Shown: in pieces, positions 1,925 through 40,104 of the stretch | Layout: every line of letters begins with the position of its first letter | Numbering within the stretch: the stretch's first letter is position 1 | Origin: Octopus vulgaris | Taxonomy: Eukaryota | Direction of reading: 5' to 3' | DNA length: 64,000 nt | Assembly: GCA_951406725.2 (NCBI GenBank) | Contig: OX597825.1 | Coordinates: 13,578,001 to 13,642,000, forward strand | Position numbers and translations under genes: made by a program | Notes under the pieces: generated by a model | Seen by the model: the letters and a program-made list of their open reading frames with translations, nothing else | What the model was told of the DNA's origin: nothing | Databases searched by the model: none

Positions 1925-3133
1925 TTCCTAATATCGCCATAAACAACTTACAAGAGCTTCCATCCAGTTGTGTGATACCAGCTTGATTAGTTTTCGGTAC
2001 TTATCTTGTTTCGATGCCGGCATTGATTTTTTTTTTACCGTCGTCTTTGTGTTTGTTGTTTGTTTTATGTTTTGTTGGGTTTTTTTTCCTTTCCTTTTTT
2101 AGCTTTTTTTTTTCGCCCTCTGATCATTTACTTCCTTCTTGAATAATCTAAAATGTTATTCAGCCGCTTGTAATTTCACTTAATTTATTATTAACAGCGT
2201 TAATGTTTCTGTTATCAACGGTTATGTTATGTAATCACCGATGATGTTAGAAATAGTGGGGGGGGGAGGAGGAAAAAGAGAAACCACAATTACCATAGCA
2301 AGGAAAAGAACACAACAAACATTACCTTTTATCGCAGTTTATTTCTTCTCTCTCTTGATGTTAGTTTTAACGAACTTGTCAAGAGAGATCGTTTAGATTT
2401 CCTTTCGCTTTTGATGTTCACTTAACTCGTAAATGGTTTTAACTTTATCATTTTGTTATCATTTGCTAATTTTTCCTGTTATATCTATAGATTTCTTCTA
2501 TTTTCTTTGGAGTTTTTGGTTTAGCTAAGGTAGAGAAGGCATTCTCTCTTTACCTTTCTCTCTCCTTTGTCGTTCCTTCTTATTTATATTTTTTTTCAAT
2601 TAAAGGCTGGTTTACTTTATTGGCAGAAACTGTGGTGAAGTTATCTCTAAAATTAGAAGAGACAATAATATCGCTATATATTTGTTGTTGTATTTGATTA
2701 CAGACATTAATAAGTCTCCATTTCTGTAAGCAATTCCTGTGATCGTCAAAAGATACCGATGTTGTTCAGGGACAGGGAGATAAAACACAGAGCATCTTCT
2801 TTCCAAAGAAGTTTTTCCAATGTGACAAACAAGACTGTATATTATTTTTGCAACCGAAAACTATGTCACAAGAAAACATTAAATTTAGTCAATATTTGCA
2901 CAGAATGCGGAGAACCAGACAAACATTACTTTTCTTTCGGTAATGACATAAGCCTAAACCGTTCTTACACCGTGTTCTCATTTTTAAATTACATTAGCAA
3001 TTTTACATTAATTTGATTTCCTAATGATATGAAATGCTAAAGTACTACAACGTAGGGCATTTATGATTGATTGGTTAACCATGCATCCCCTCCACAGCAA
3101 CACATCTGTATCTGTCCTCCTGCCATGCCTTAA

Positions 3134-3354
3134 CCCTTTAGTGTTCACATTATTCTGCCAAAATTAATCCTTTTTCATCCACATTGTTTTGAACTAATCA
3201 TGCATTATCTTGTAGTTTTGAGATTCTGATGAGGTAGCTGTTAATTTTTAAAACGATATTGTAGGGTTGGTGTGAGAGACCAGATCTGGCCAGTTTGAAC
3301 ATAAAACAGGCAGAATACTTTTGGCCGGATATGTCCAGTTTAAATGCTTAAGGG
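3134..3354. mobile_element. piggyBac-like MITE
   Basis: TTAA TSD (3130-3133, 3355-3358), CCCTT...AAGGG termini; related copies near 7351-7820, 11905-12000, 31754-31981, 32028-32340. Confidence 0.65.
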
Positions 3355-4444
3355 TTAATTTCTCAACATCTCATAGAAGAAGTTTCGTGGGAATACTGAA
3401 TTCACAAGTGGTCCCCGACATCCCGCATGCATATCCTGAGTGACAGGACGCCTGTTTGCCATGGAGTCTCCACAGACACAGGGACAGAATGACCTCAAAG
3501 CCGCCGGATGCCGATCAGATGCCTCTTGGAATTTTCACCAGTTGGCCAGGCTGCGGTCCTAATACCACTTGGGTGGCCCTAACAGGAACCAAAGTTCCTG
3601 ACGGCATAGCTCTGACACTGCCCGTTTACACCACCATACCACTTTGAGAAGGGGTTGAACTTTAGGGATGGACCAGAGAAGAAGCTGGCTCAACCCGCCC
3701 TGAGTGAACGCCGTCACATGTACAAGAACAAGTCTCAACATCTGGTACCAAGCCATTATCTTCAATTCTACATCACCATTCTCTTGCAAATTACCTGGTG
3801 ACTTCACCAGTGCTTGGTGCCATGAAAAAATGCACCTAGTGAACTCTAAGTTGTTGGCATTAGGAAGGACATGCAGTCTTAGAAACCTTGCCAAAATAGA
3901 CATTAGAGACCAACACAGCTTTCTGGTTGGTCAGATCTCAAAACTTCCTTCCCATTTTAGCATGGAATACAGACATTAAAGGATGATAGTGATGATGATG
4001 AGGAGGAGGATGGTCTGCTTTGAGTTCTAAAGAATTATTTTGCACCAATCTATCCAAGGCTGCATAGTAGTCAAACTACTTTTTATGCCCTTCCTACTGG
4101 GAACCACTCAACCTTGAAATAGAAGCAGAGCAAGTTTAGGAGCATAATTTGTTTTCTTCTTCATTCAAGCAGTTTGGAACAAACTGTTATCTGCTTTGCT
4201 TGAAGATACAACATAATGACAATGGTAAAAATTTTAGTTAAAATCAGGAAGAAATTATGAATCCATTTTTACTGAGTTGGAAGAAATGCCGCCAAACCCT
4301 TAATTTGATGTGGTAATGATTCTTCTTGGTCATGTCTTTGGCTTATTTTGAATAATTAATCCAAATTATTATTTCAGCTAAAATTTCTGACAATGTGGAC
4401 AAAACACAAGAGATTGCTAACATTTGTCAGACAACAAATTTATA

Positions 4445-4672
4445 TTAGTTTCAAATTTTGGCACAAGGCCAGCAAGTTCTGCTTAGTGGGTGGGGAGGGG
4501 GCAAGTTGATTACATCAACCCCAGTATTCAACTGGTACTTATTTTATCAATGTTGAAAGGATGAAAGGCAAAGTCAACCTCAGCAGAATTTGAACTCAGA
4601 ACGTAAAGATGGACGAAATGCTGAAAAGCGTTTGGTCCAGTCTGCTAATGATTTGGCCAGCTTGCTGCCTTT
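4445..4672 (-). mobile_element. tRNA-derived SINE, Nin/Deu-like central domain
   Basis: Matches the window's ~240-bp family (A box GGCAGAATCGTTAG, B box GAGTTCAAATTCC, GCCTTTCATCCTTTCGGGGTCGATAAATTAAGTACCAG). Confidence 0.75.
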
Positions 4673-4682
4673 ATCAAGCATC

Positions 4683-4689
<7 letters not shown>

Positions 4690-4717
<28 letters not shown>

Positions 4718-5180
4718 TTAATATCCGCTTTCCATGCTGGCATGGGTTGGATGGTTTGACTGAGGGTTGACGAACCAGAAGGCTGCACCAGGCTCCAGTC
4801 TTATCTGGCAATTTTTCTACAGCTGGATGCCCTTCCTAACGCCAACCACTCCGTGAGTGTTGTGGGTGCTTTTTACATGCCACTGGCATGAGGGGACAGT
4901 CAGGCAGTACTGACATCAGCTATGCTTGAATGGTGCTTTTTATGTACCACCAGCATGGGCCAGTTAGGCAGTACTGACATTGGCCATGCTCCAATGGTGC
5001 TTTTTACATGCCACTGGCACAAGGGCCAATCAGGCAGTACTGGCGTTGGCCATGCTCGAATGGCGCTTTTTACGTGCCACTGGTATGAGGTCCAGTCTGG
5101 CAGCACTGACATGAACCACACTCGAATGGTGCTGTTTACGTGTCACCAGCATGGGTGCCAATAACTTCACTTGCCTCAAC
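4690..5180 (-). mobile_element. Meta-domain-like SINE 3' part with (ATG)n tail and ~62-bp internal repeats
   Basis: GGTTGGCGTTAGGAAGGGCATCCAGCTGTAGAAA motif on - strand; more than 10 copies in window. Confidence 0.75.
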
Positions 5181-26420: not shown

Positions 26421-26602
26421 CAGTTCTATATTTAAGAGATGAGGAATTATGTACATTATTTACATTATTTACGTTTGACAGAAATTTGTCCTCATTTTGT
26501 TTGTTGTTAACACAATGTTTCGGCTGATATATCCTCCAGCCTTCATCAGGTGTCTTGGGAGAAATTTCAAACCTGGATTCTCAATTCCTAAGGTATTTTC
26601 CA

Positions 26603-26639
<37 letters not shown>

Positions 26640-26814
26640 ATTATTATTATTATTATTATTATTAAAGTAACAACCTGGAATTGAACTTGGAATCTTGGGG
26701 TTAGTAGCCTGTGCTCTTAACCGCTATGCCATATGCCCAACAAACAAGATGATGACAAATATCCTTCAAATGTAAATAGTGGAAATAATTCCTCATCTCT
26801 TAAATATAGAACTG
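26421..26814 (-). mobile_element. tRNA-headed, hammerhead-tailed element with inverted terminal segment (family A)
   Basis: tRNA-like head 26738-26666, (AAT/AAC)n spacer, HHR 26509-26554, inverted arms 26421-26505/26739-26814. Confidence 0.75.
26509..26554 (-). ncRNA. Minimal type-I hammerhead ribozyme motif (family A)
   Basis: GACAC-CUGAUGA-A-GGCUGG[AGGAUAUA]UCAGCC-GAAAC-AUU-GUGUU. Confidence 0.7.
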
Positions 26815-27509
26815 TATTATACTGGATGATGATGATTATTTGTGTTTTCTTGTATATCATTCCATGGAAACCTACCATATTAATTTGGTAATGCAACCAT
26901 AGATTTACAAAGTCAACTGCTGATGGTCTTCAACTTTGCAACTTGCTTTTGGATTACCTGGAGATATATACCAATCAGCAAACCTTTTGTTAGTCAGGTA
27001 TATTTGTAAGAGCAGAGAGCTTAAGAAGTATTTTCCTAGACTGATAATCTCTTCTTGATAGCTTTTTATTCTGATATTGTGTGCTTTGTGTGTGTGTATG
27101 TGTGTGTGTGTGTGAATGTGTGAGTGTATGTGTGTGTCAGTAGTGTGTGTATGCATATGCATGTGTGTGTTTGTGTCTCTTTGTGTCTGTTTGACATCGC
27201 ATGATTGTTATAAATAAATGTCATTCATTTCCAATGTTCTGCAAAAACATGTCTGGCCTTCGAGAAATATTACTTGGGACACAGACGAGGGGTAGTGACA
27301 GGAAGAGCATCTGGTTGAAGAAAATCTGCCTCCATAAACTCTGTTCTTCTTGTGCAAGCATGAAAAACTGGATATTAAAATGATGATGATGATGATGATG
27401 AAAGTGATTAATGAGTGATGATGATGATGATTAATCAATGTGTGTCTATAACTTTTCATTTTCCTTTCTTCATACGTGTTTTTTTTTTTTTGGTTTTGGA
27501 TTCATATAT

Positions 27510-28557
27510 CGAAATCGATCAACATCAATGGAAATTATAGCTGTGATACCAGTACTGGTGGCACGTAAGAGAACCATCTGAACGTGGCCGTTGCCAGTGC
27601 TGCCCCGACTGGCTTCCGTGCCGGTGGTACGTAAAAAGCACCATCCGATCATGGCCGTTGCCAACCTCGCTTGGCCTCCATGCCAGTGGCACATAAAAAG
27701 TACCATCCAATCGTGGCCGTTTGCCAGCCTCGTCTGGCACCTGTGTCGGTGGTACGTAAAAAGCACCATCCGATCATAGCCATTGCCAACCTCGCTTGGC
27801 CTCCATGCCAGTGGCACATAAAAAGTACCATCCAATCGTGGCCGTTTGCCAGCCTCGTCTGGCACCTGTGTCGGTGGCATGTAGCACCATCCGATCATGG
27901 CCATTGCCAACCTCGCTTGGCCTCCATGCCAGTGGCACATAAAAAGTACCATCCAATCGTGGCCGTTTGCCAGCCTCGTCTGGCACCTGTGTCGGTGGCA
28001 TGTAAAAAGCACCATCCGATCATGGCCATTGCCAACCTCGCTTGGCCTCCATGCCAGTGGCACATAAAAAGTACCATCCAATCGTGGCCGTTTGCCAGCC
28101 TCGTCTGGCACCTGTGTCGGTGGTACGTAAAAAGCACCATCCGATCATGGCCGTTGCCAACCTCGCTTGGCCTCCATGCCAGTGGCACATAAAAAGTACC
28201 ATCCAATTGTGGCCGTTTGCCAGCCTCGTCTGGCACCTGTGTCGGTGGTACGTAAAAAGCACCATCCGATCATGGCCGTTGCCAACCTCGCTTGGCCTCC
28301 ATGCCAGTGGCACATAAAAAGTACCATCCAATTGTGGCCGTTTGCCAGCCTCGTCTGGCACCTGTGTCGGTGGCATGTAAAAAGCACCCACTACACTCAC
28401 GGAGTGGTTGGCGTTAGGAAGGGCATCCAGCTGTAGAAATATTGCCAGATCAGACTGGGCCTGGTGCAGCCTTCTGGCTTCCCAGACCCCAGTTGAACTG
28501 TCCAACCCATGCCAGCATGGAGGACGGACGCTAAATGATGATGATGATGATGATGAT
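27510..28557 (+). mobile_element. Meta-domain-like SINE with expanded internal 125-bp array
   Basis: Six 125-bp units starting 27631, 27756, 27881 (121 bp), 28002, 28127, 28252; (ATG)n tail. Confidence 0.9.
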
Positions 28558-32978: not shown

Positions 32979-33445
32979 TTATTTTGTAAAAATCTAAACG
33001 GCACTCAGAGCAAGCTTCAAAATTGTAACCCGCTTCTCCCAACCAAAAAGTAGTACATGCATTTTGTGAGGTCAAGTAAGAATGCTTATTCTGTTCAGTA
33101 GTGTTGTGGATGGTGACAAGCAAACTAAACCATGCCAGAAAAGATTAAAAGAATTTTTTTTTAATTGCTCGATAAGAAAATGAGCTTGGCCAAAATTGCA
33201 CCCCAACTCAAAGTACCACCCAGGGCATGTGCTCTGCTTGCCCCACCCTAGCTATGCACCTGATTATGAGATAAGCAAATTAGAAAATAGTAATTTGATT
33301 GATTCCCAAAAATAGAAATACATCTGTAAGTGGAACTTCTCTCAATTTGAGAAAATATTTGAATTTTCAGTGCTATACTAAAAATAAATCCCTGACAAGC
33401 AATTATGAAATGAATGAGTGCATCATGTTATGAAATATACCCACA

Positions 33446-33914
33446 GGCATATGGCATAGTGGTTAAGAGCGCGGGCTACTAACCCCAAGATTCCGAGTTC
33501 GTTTCCAGGCAGTGACCTGAATGATAATAATAATAATTATTATAATAATAATTGGCAGAAACGTTAGCACGCCGAGCGAAATGCCAAGTGGTATTTCATC
33601 TGCTGTATATGTGCTGAGGTCAAATTCCGCTGCGGTCGACTTTACCTTTCATCCTTTTGGGGTCGATTAAATAAGTACCAGTTAATCACTGGGGTTGATG
33701 TAATCAAAAACTTAATCCCATCGTCTGTCCTTGTTTGTCCCCTGTGGGCAATAAAGAAATAAAATAATAATAACATCGAAACATACCTTTAGGAAGGAGA
33801 ACCCAAGTTCGAAATTTCCCCAGGACACCTGATGAAGGCTGGAGGCTATATCAGCCGAAAGGTTATGTTAACAACAAACAAAATGAGGACAAATATCCAT
33901 CAAATGTAAATAAT
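33446..33914 (+). mobile_element. Second family-A element, interrupted by a Nin/Deu-like SINE (33553-33761)
   Basis: A box TGGCATAGTGG, GGG-CTACTAA-CCC anticodon-like arm, B box GAGTTCGTTTCC; HHR 33824-33869. Confidence 0.75.
33824..33869 (+). ncRNA. Minimal hammerhead motif (family A), mutated stem III
   Basis: GACAC-CUGAUGA-A-GGCUGG[AGGCUAUA]UCAGCC-GAAAG-GUU-AUGUU. Confidence 0.6.
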
Positions 33915-37552: not shown

Positions 37553-38556
37553 TAAAAAAATAAAAAAAATAAAAGTGAAATAAAAGCCATGATGGAAACC
37601 AAAATTAAAACAAAGGAAAAATAACAAACAAATATTGATGAAACTGATAAAAAAAAATTTAAACGAACCAAAACTGCAAACAAACCTCGTTAGGTGTTTT
37701 AGAAGAAATGAATATCAAGATCCAAGATTTTTGAAATGTTGAGAAATTCTTTGGTAATTAGAATGGTTGAACACTAAAACATTGAATTGTTTGGGAATGT
37801 GTGGGAGGAAGATGAGGAGAGGGAAGCCGTGGGGGTGGGGCAAATATTTTGTTTGTTGTTGTAGAATGTTTTGTTATGTTGTATCTTTTGTTTTGTATTT
37901 GTTTTGTTATAAGGCTGCTCCCATGCTGGGGCATCATCGCCTAGAAGAATTTTTTTGGGGGGGGGGTTTGTTGAATGAATTGAATTGAACCCTTGGTTTA
38001 TGTGTTTACATGTTTTTTTTTAAGTGTGGTACTTGATCTATCGGTCATTTTTGCTGAAGCGCTAAGTTACTGGAATGTAGACACATCGATGTCACTTGTC
38101 AAATAGTGTTAGGGGATAAACACAAAGACACACACACATACAAACATATACACAAACATACACACACCACACTACACAAATACAAAAACACAATGACACA
38201 TAAACACTCAAGCACAAACATACACACACAAATACATATACACACACACACACACACCACATACAAATACATATACACAGACACAAATACAGATACACAA
38301 ACATACACACACACACACCACTCACATAATTGTTGATGGAAATGGAAAATGGATTTAGCATGAATCTTCATTGAATGCGATGATCATTTCGCCCCATCCT
38401 GCAGCTGTCTTTTACGAGCAGGATATTGTACACCAAATTGCATCAATCACTGGATGACACCAGGTTCCCCAAATGGTCAATGGGTTTTAACCAGCATATA
38501 AATATACTTATACCCAAAGTCCAAATAATTACTTATGTATATATGTATGTATGTAT

Positions 38557-38765
38557 AATGTAACCACATGTGTATCGTTGGCGATTTTTTTTCCTCCGTC
38601 TTCCCTTCCTTGGATCTTTCCTTTTCCTATGTTTCTGATGAAGAGCTCCGCTCGAAACGTTAAATCCTCCTTCTTTCTTTCCTTTCCTGAGTGTCCAATA
38701 ACACTATACTTGTTCCATGTCCTCCTGTTGCTGTGTTTTCTCTTTGTGTTTCATGTTTCGATTAT
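38557..38765 (+). mobile_element. ~210-bp PLE-like non-autonomous element (family B2)
   Basis: Colinear with 15001-15210 (-) and 53860-54410 (+); TA-rich flanks; contains an HHR. Confidence 0.7.
38631..38665 (+). ncRNA. Intact minimal type-I hammerhead ribozyme motif
   Basis: GUUU-CUGAUGA-A-GAGC[UCC]GCUC-GAAACGUU-AAAU; full core, palindromic ACGU stem III; predicted cleavage after 38661. Confidence 0.75.
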
Positions 38766-40104
38766 ACATATATAGTAGGGAATATAATTCTAAACTTACA
38801 GGGAAAAATTCAATTTGACAATTCTAAATCAAATTTCACAATATATAATATATGTATAAAATTTAGAGAAATAACCTCTATTAAACAAACAACTTAATAA
38901 TCATAGACGTTATTCACACCATATAGAAAAGTTAAATATACTATAAAAAACACTATTCTAAAAATCAATAGAGTACATAAACAATAAATAGTAAATAGTA
39001 TATATGTGCTTCAGTTTCTGTCTACCAAATCCACTCACAAGGCTATAGTAGAAAACACTTGTTTAAGATGCCACACAGTGGGACTGAACCCAGAGCTATG
39101 TTGTTTTGAAGCAAGCTTCTTACCACACAGCCATACCAGTGTCTGAACATTGTTATATTTTATTCTGAAGACAAAATGTGATTCTATATATATTTCATTC
39201 TTTCTTCGTCCTTTCATTCTTGCTTCTGCATATGGAAAAAAAAAAGCCTCTTGTGTCATTGTTTTGTTTTCCTTCTGTCCTTTTCCATGTTCTGTTCTAC
39301 AAGAATGGCTTCCTGATTCACTGTTCAGTTCTTCAAAGGAAGGATACTTCTATTCTGTCAGTTGGAGATGAGTTATATTCTGTAATAGACATCTAGGAAA
39401 CATTTAAAAGTTCTGCTACTTCAGTGATGAATATTTCTTAAGCCCTTCATTTCTCGTTGTGCATAAGCATCAGTGACCTTTTTTTCACATTTATCAACCC
39501 TGAGGTTGTCTCCCTGAGGGAAAGCTTTCTTCTCTCAAGTCTTTCTGGTTTTGAATTATCAGCCATACTTCAGTAACTTTGCCTTTTTTCTACGTAGGGT
39601 TGTCAGTCTTACACAAATCCATTAACTGTGAAGCAGGGGTCAATATTAGTTTGACTACTGTCCTTTGACCTTTCCTGCATAGGGAGCTCTACCTGGGGCT
39701 CGCACTTTATGGGCACAGTTCTCAGGGTCTTATTGAGGCATACAGACACCAAATCACGATGATGATGGAATCTTGTGGTAGGATTAATATTATGATATCA
39801 GCTTAGAGTTTGACAATAAGTAAGCTGTGACCTGCAAGCGCACCATGGAGGTTTTCTCTGTGGTCCTCATATCGGTTTTGGAAATTCATTGCCTTTGCAG
39901 ACATTGAACAGTTATTAGATTTTCAGCAAATGAATTAAGCTTGTGAAAATTTACATTCCATTTGAGGATGCAAGAACTTGGTAGAATGGTGCTTTAATAT
40001 TCTCAATATTCGATTTTATAGCATCTTTTGTGTCATAATTTGTTAAAGTGTTGCTTATATAAGCATTGGAAAAGGGGGTTATGTAGCAATATGTTTCTGT
40101 ATGT

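Follow-up and report, generated by a model that had tools for sequence, protein, structure and literature searches.

The feature at positions 26421 to 26820 of the window (the whole 64,000-nucleotide stretch of Octopus vulgaris DNA analysed here) is a detached terminal fragment of a highly abundant Penelope-type element. Its tRNA-like head, (AAT)n spacer, hammerhead and tail almost certainly constitute the terminal repeat (pLTR) of an autonomous Penelope/Poseidon-type Penelope-like element (PLE) in the same genome. A preliminary description of this DNA had recognized these parts and an inverted arm, reading along the minus strand, and all of them are present. It had interpreted them as a SINE in which a tRNA head is fused to a borrowed tail. 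Because the PLE shares the whole unit, head included, we instead identify the unit as the element's own pLTR. The unusual part is the tRNA-derived head with intact A and B boxes at the start of this pLTR. The parts of this copy, and a second copy in the window, are as follows.

26665..26738, minus strand: tRNA-derived head, the 5' part of the pLTR; its consensus is colinear with host tRNAs, and +1 lies at 26738
26731-26721, minus strand: A box of the head, fitting the type-2 promoter consensus
26688-26677, minus strand: B box of the head, fitting the same consensus
about 26605..26664, minus strand: (AAT)n(AAC)n spacer, variable in length
26421..26604, minus strand: 3' part of the pLTR, comprising the end of the 5' UTR and the first ~50 codons of the PLE ORF
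26509..26554, minus strand: minimal type-I hammerhead within the ORF start, with a predicted cut after 26514
26421..26446, minus strand: PLE 'tail' extension, between the family's two 3' end points (bimodal 3' ends; compare PMC11167929)
26738..26820, plus strand: inverted, 5'-truncated second arm, equal to positions 98-180 of the hammerhead/tail part
33443..33914, plus strand: second pLTR copy, with the short 3' end and another repeat inserted in its (AAT)n

The two arms of the window copy join head-to-head and share one base at the junction. The inverted copy had been placed at 26739-26814 with its outer 30 bases perfect; its presence and those perfect bases stand, while the boundary shifts, as the arm extends six bases further, to 26820. 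These six additional bases match the continuation of the parent ORF, and identity between the arms is 80% over 86 columns. In the window copy an inserted base has eliminated the ATG (about 26586-26583), and the reading frame is interrupted. In its hammerhead an A replaces the family's G at position 16.2, and the ACGU palindrome is broken. The copy is also atypical in that both arms are long (one of three long+long pairings) and no TSD is found, the best flank repeat being 4 nt. Together with a 9-nt repeat in which the two arms differ, the long+long pairing suggests that this copy may be a rearranged compound insertion. A tandem array of about 125-bp units adjoins the element (window 27477-28379).

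The parent element and its terminal repeats

The head and the hammerhead tail belong together, as had been proposed: in 27 of 30 loci selected by the head, the tail follows within 1.5 kb. Chance adjacency of head and tail was considered and rejected, the unit being a high-copy family. A free-standing SINE composed of the head and (AAT)n was also rejected; the three head-only loci among the 30 have a degraded tail or spacer repeat.

An autonomous PLE with a matching tail, which the preliminary description had called for, does occur in this genome. A consensus built from 32 copies holds a single open frame of 835 codons, its start lying ~30 bases ahead of the hammerhead, so that hammerhead and tail encode the first ~50 codons of the 835-aa ORF. 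The unit is linked to this ORF at both ends. At one locus (L012) the RT/endonuclease-type frame runs into the head. Among 21 independent loci selected by the ORF, 18 have the head ~25 bases beyond the stop codon; the count was 27 of 30 until the query was dropped and nine near-identical copies on contig C31 were collapsed. On the other side, hammerhead and tail lie directly upstream of the 5' part of the ORF, and in frame with it, in nine of 30 loci selected by that part, one of which begins at head +4. Three near-complete units were found, and the pLTRs at both ends hold the ORF start and the minimal hammerhead.

The nine contig C31 loci (L070, L072, L073, L075, L080, L081, L083, L084 and L090) carry one decayed PLE insertion with shared flanks and are a segmental or tandem amplification. 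In the consensus 3' UTR, the stretch from the stop codon to the head, ~30 bases ahead of the latter, looks like a degenerate inverted repeat of the first 30 bases of the head and can pair with them.

The encoded protein matches RVT_1 in a natural copy (L174; 39.7 bits against a cut-off of 29.6). A PDB sequence search returned weak RT matches only, and the C-terminal 140 aa gave no Pfam or NCBIfam match. From PLE motifs (Y-x-I-x-C-x-C, Y-x-G-E-T and R..EH), we take the C-terminus to be a putative GIY-YIG endonuclease, and placement in the Penelope/Poseidon clade is likewise our assumption, drawn from architecture and from general knowledge of such elements. An 847-aa relative is identical at 475 of 835 residues and keeps the hammerhead-coded peptide at its N-terminus; the protein relatives found are unnamed or 'uncharacterized'. 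No intact copy is present among the 150 best RT-core matches, all of which are decayed. Words of the family occur in sequencing runs of five organisms, for three of which contigs or reads were compared, and no DNA of distant relatives turned up in a metagenome scan.

The family comprises ~44,000 insertions (95% range 27,000-69,000) in the 2.8-Gb genome, an estimate from 120 evenly spaced 10-kb stretches on 25 contigs, 19 of which contain the element. Copies in the sampled loci are solo or inverted. Other repeats frequently break up the (AAT)n spacer and part head from tail (L007, L015, L021, L029, L043, L050, L062 and, in the second window copy, about 33556-33760), and some of these interrupting repeats are presumably pieces of R4/Dong-like LINEs.

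The head and the 5' ends of copies

The head is of tRNA origin. Its consensus aligns colinearly with host tRNAs, best with tRNA-Arg (z of 7.3 and 6.9 against shuffles), in a comparison with 25 distinct host tRNAs that covered only six isotypes and one Glu-labelled, Lys-like copy. The A and B boxes are perfect in the family consensus, measured against the type-2 consensus, and stand at tRNA spacing. ARAGORN at its default setting reported no tRNA in the window or in 40 loci and, at a 70% threshold, only a poor, mis-registered fold; Rfam gave neither a tRNA nor a hammerhead match.

The 5' ends of copies pile up at the start of this head. With one arm counted per insertion in tail-selected and sampled loci, 65 insertions carry the head and 52 reach +6. 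Among these 52, 45 stop in the interval -20..+6 and seven continue, against a stop fraction of 7% predicted from the upstream stop rate. The unbiased sample alone gives seven stops out of ten in the same interval. Starts listed at -20..-8 are mostly alignments that run through a quasi-palindrome, and the true junctions cluster at -7..+6. A tRNA-related head with A and B boxes, and copies that begin at it, are traits of SINE2-like repeats.

Since most copies start at the head, the element likely uses a tRNA-type polymerase and yields SINE-like short copies. The reading that we favor, from these sequence patterns, is that a tRNA-type promoter probably sets the start site, with the protein of the element acting in trans to copy short pLTR RNAs. 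In every copy with a retained head, transcription would begin ~6 bases upstream of the tRNA +1. From the 5' pLTR the transcript would run into the ORF, whose sense strand is without a TTTT run; from a 3' or solo pLTR, an RNA of ~300-400 nt would result. That Pol III makes the whole ORF is a more tentative suggestion from the sequence, one that we hold to be doubtful. The need to translate an uncapped RNA counts against Pol III use. In the ORF sense strand, no TTTT run occurs where synonymous shuffles predict 2.96 (P 0.023), and none occurs in the whole 2.9-kb consensus unit. Nineteen other retroelement ORFs, taken as single copies, hold 46 such runs against 46.8 expected. This result is one modest post-hoc test, and one control ORF (1,479 nt) is also without TTTT. 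RNA-seq of a related species (6% of two runs) counts against the favored reading: both strands are covered alike, and molecule starts do not accumulate at the head. What most often precedes the head in these data is upstream sequence of the PLE itself (agreement 0.62 and 0.56), and such libraries mostly show copies inside host transcripts.

Alternatively, these could be ordinary 5'-truncated PLE copies transcribed by Pol II, from a promoter in their own pLTR or by read-through, with the tRNA-like part as a captured relic. The pile-up at the head would then reflect cDNA stalling or fold-back at the palindrome, or a Pol II start there by chance. We regard this alternative as possible, if rather unlikely. 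It is favored by a hairpin that spans the head start, where ORF-linked copies show five deletion events against about 1.4 expected, and by the frequency of head-to-head junctions, which make up 18 of the 55 arms that stop at the head start (the partner lies deeper in the head in seven, in the tail in 14, and was not detected in 16). For other PLEs, palindromes at inverted junctions and self-priming have been proposed (PMC3846280), and an internal TATA-less promoter is described in the Drosophila Penelope pLTR (PMC2377424). The sharp 5' edge is moreover not specific to Pol III, as a second hammerhead family in this genome, with no obvious tRNA head, shows one as well, and rotifer pLTRs have palindromic 5' ends for which no tRNA part is reported (PMC3846280). 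Many of the stops in -7..+6, however, join flank or tail sequence rather than folding back at the loop, and a stalled cDNA would be predicted to end at the 3' foot of the stem, not beyond the loop. The perfect, tRNA-spaced A and B boxes and the consensus unit free of TTTT also argue against Pol II transcription and for the tRNA-type promoter.

The preliminary description had further implied a separate SINE, and we find no SINE-only variants. We consider it improbable that short head-start copies form an independent lineage, acting as their own master genes and spreading separately from the PLE. Among insertions reaching the head start, head-start copies do outnumber ORF-bearing ones ~6 to 1, and they are slightly less diverged (3.9% versus 5.0% outside CpG, in two sets that were selected differently). 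Yet the unit, including the head, is identical to the pLTR of the PLE, and once the 43 sites tested are corrected for, no variant tells the 31 short pLTRs apart from the 24 ORF-linked ones (smallest uncorrected P 0.023). Both the 9-nt repeat variant and the N7 variant of the hammerhead are present in the two classes. That short and ORF-linked pLTRs share one consensus thus argues against a separate lineage.

Insertion ends and the hammerhead

The PLE insertion signature that had been expected is found at the level of the family, with two 3' end points, inverted arms and TSDs of 9-17 bp. The 3' ends of 152 of 174 arms fall into two groups: 74 lie at 140-154 of the tail part and 78 at 170-184. 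The proposed tabulation of 5' inversions and TSDs gives 61 inverted pairings, in which some loci are counted more than once and fragments count as short. A long arm is paired with a short arm in 55 of them, and flank repeats of at least 9 nt, mostly 11-13 nt, are found in 33, against 1.8% of mismatched pairs.

By analogy with the anole element PAc, we propose that the RT/GIY-YIG protein would make nicks in the two strands about 11-13 bp from each other and that an uncleaved RNA would be reverse-transcribed from two internal sites. In PAc the hammerhead holds the start of the ORF, and two internal RT start sites flank the tail (PMC11167929). Synthesis of the cDNAs would end by run-off at the 5' end of the RNA, and the cDNAs would join head-to-head through a GCCC/GGGC palindrome or other microhomology. 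Pure self-fold-back as the origin of all pairs was rejected, as, out of about 200 non-CpG variants each, the two arms of an insertion have only 20 in common. These 20 shared variants exceed the shuffled mean of 5.5 (maximum 15), which fits a shared template without proving fold-back. Template-jump chimeras, in which internal ORF pieces are joined directly to the head start or tail, occur at L023, L050, L195/L244 and L017.

The hammerhead of the window copy has a stem I of 5 bp, CUGAUGA, a stem II of 5-6 bp and GAAA. The family consensus carries the features listed for metazoan minimal hammerheads (PMC4209133), namely the core boxes, a stem I of 4-5 bp, a long stem II, an extra base after A9 and a palindromic 15.2-16.2, and is thus of minimal type I. 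A descriptor of this motif gives 17 matches in 1.2 Mb of sampled sequence and none in 600 kb of base-shuffled sequence. The hammerhead stretch folds with z = -2.6, although its minimum-energy fold closes the core. Family copies decay neutrally, and the hammerhead motif is also coding. One common core variant lies outside CpG sites, N7 T>A in 23 of 182 copies; it is not independent evidence, since it is also a conservative Asp-to-Glu change.

Use of self-cleaving RNA had been part of the proposed element, yet self-cleavage cannot have produced the template: the ends of 152 of the 174 arms lie about 55-90 nt downstream from the predicted cut. With both 3' end points downstream of that cut, we infer that the templates are uncleaved. 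Retrozyme-like replication, in which a hammerhead-excised monomer circularizes and is then reverse-transcribed, has been proposed for PLE derivatives (PMC4209133; bioRxiv 10.64898/2026.07.22.740005). An intact minimal hammerhead in the consensus would suit it, as would the finding that the only common non-CpG core variant falls at the free position N7. We nonetheless consider this mode of replication highly improbable here, as copy ends do not match the predicted cut site, no head-to-tail array of the short unit stood out among the sampled loci, and cleavage is not needed for in vitro insertion by PAc (PMC11167929). In the mechanism that we favor, the hammerhead would be a legacy of the PLE that likely functions after template use or separately from it.

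Other hammerhead-bearing repeats were observed. A second abundant family of ~240 bp with a different minimal hammerhead is represented in the window at 38535-38775 (plus strand, core at 38635) and by another copy at about 15004-15224 (minus strand). This family is T-rich and (TA)n-flanked, and its 5' edge is sharp (of 27 arms shown, 11 start within 19 nt); it is likely the pLTR of another PLE family. At L307 (G000:C1:20000001-20010000), a tandem 359-bp repeat at about 3080-4900 (plus strand), along with two units on the minus strand, carries a canonical-looking type-I hammerhead in each unit, and a related unit lies at the start of L120. This repeat looks like a non-LTR retrozyme.

Relation to known elements and implications

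Like the PLEs PAc (PMC11167929), Pen2a_Av (PMC3846280) and D. virilis Penelope (PMC2377424), as described in those texts, the octopus element has one ORF of ~835 aa with RT and a putative C-terminal endonuclease-type motif. It also shares with them a pLTR that holds the first codons of the ORF, the hammerhead and the promoter, a predicted one in the octopus element, and a one-sided tail (30-40 bp), an inverted 5' arm and a short TSD. Those elements have TATA-less or TATA/Inr-like promoters in the accounts cited, whereas the octopus pLTR begins with a tRNA-derived A/B-box module. Palindromic 5' ends are described for the rotifer Pen2a_Av pLTRs, with no tRNA part reported in the sections consulted (PMC3846280).

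The schistosome Sm-alpha and Sj-alpha repeats resemble the octopus unit in that a tRNA-related Pol III promoter is followed by a type-I hammerhead at high copy number (PMC6765202, PMC2770079). They are non-coding and arranged in tandem, and cleavage is said to release the monomer (PMC6765202, PMC2770079); the octopus unit differs from them as the terminal repeat of a coding PLE, dispersed or inverted, with ends that are not set by the ribozyme. Non-LTR retrozymes and the non-autonomous Chlamys elements such as MRC1 are, like the short octopus copies, non-coding PLE-derived units moved by PLE enzymes (bioRxiv 10.64898/2026.07.22.740005; PMC8557442). Retrozymes are defined by tandem arrays in which each unit has a hammerhead, whereas octopus copies are solo or inverted. 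The terms 'tRNA', 'promoter' and 'Pol III' are absent from the main text of the preprint (bioRxiv 10.64898/2026.07.22.740005). A small-RNA-derived Pol III promoter in a terminal repeat, possibly acquired by SINE capture, is also described for Helenus and Cassandra (TRIMp3), which are non-autonomous LTR elements, whereas the octopus element is an autonomous PLE (PMC10886601).

The earlier view that this architecture is undescribed was therefore overstated, as SINE-like repeats with Pol III promoters and hammerheads and non-autonomous PLE derivatives are in print. In the portions of the literature consulted, we found no PLE with a tRNA-derived pLTR; the consensus may already be in Repbase or Dfam, and supplements could bear on novelty. 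The text seen of an octopus repeat annotation has no mention of a tRNA-headed PLE (PMC13282606), and SINEBase (PMC3531059) gave matches in reference lists only. The octopus SINE OR1 is listed as a CORE-SINE (PMC4824008).

If Pol III is not used, this would be an ordinary Penelope family with a captured tRNA relic. If the favored reading is true, the line between SINEs and autonomous elements would be blurred. One cassette would serve as the promoter of a coding element and, alone, as a complete SINE-like template, since PLE reverse transcription starts inside the pLTR. The family would then offer a direct route to the birth of SINEs and an opportunity to test whether a Pol III transcript can serve as mRNA. 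In annotation, such copies, which number in the tens of thousands, are easily mistaken for SINEs.
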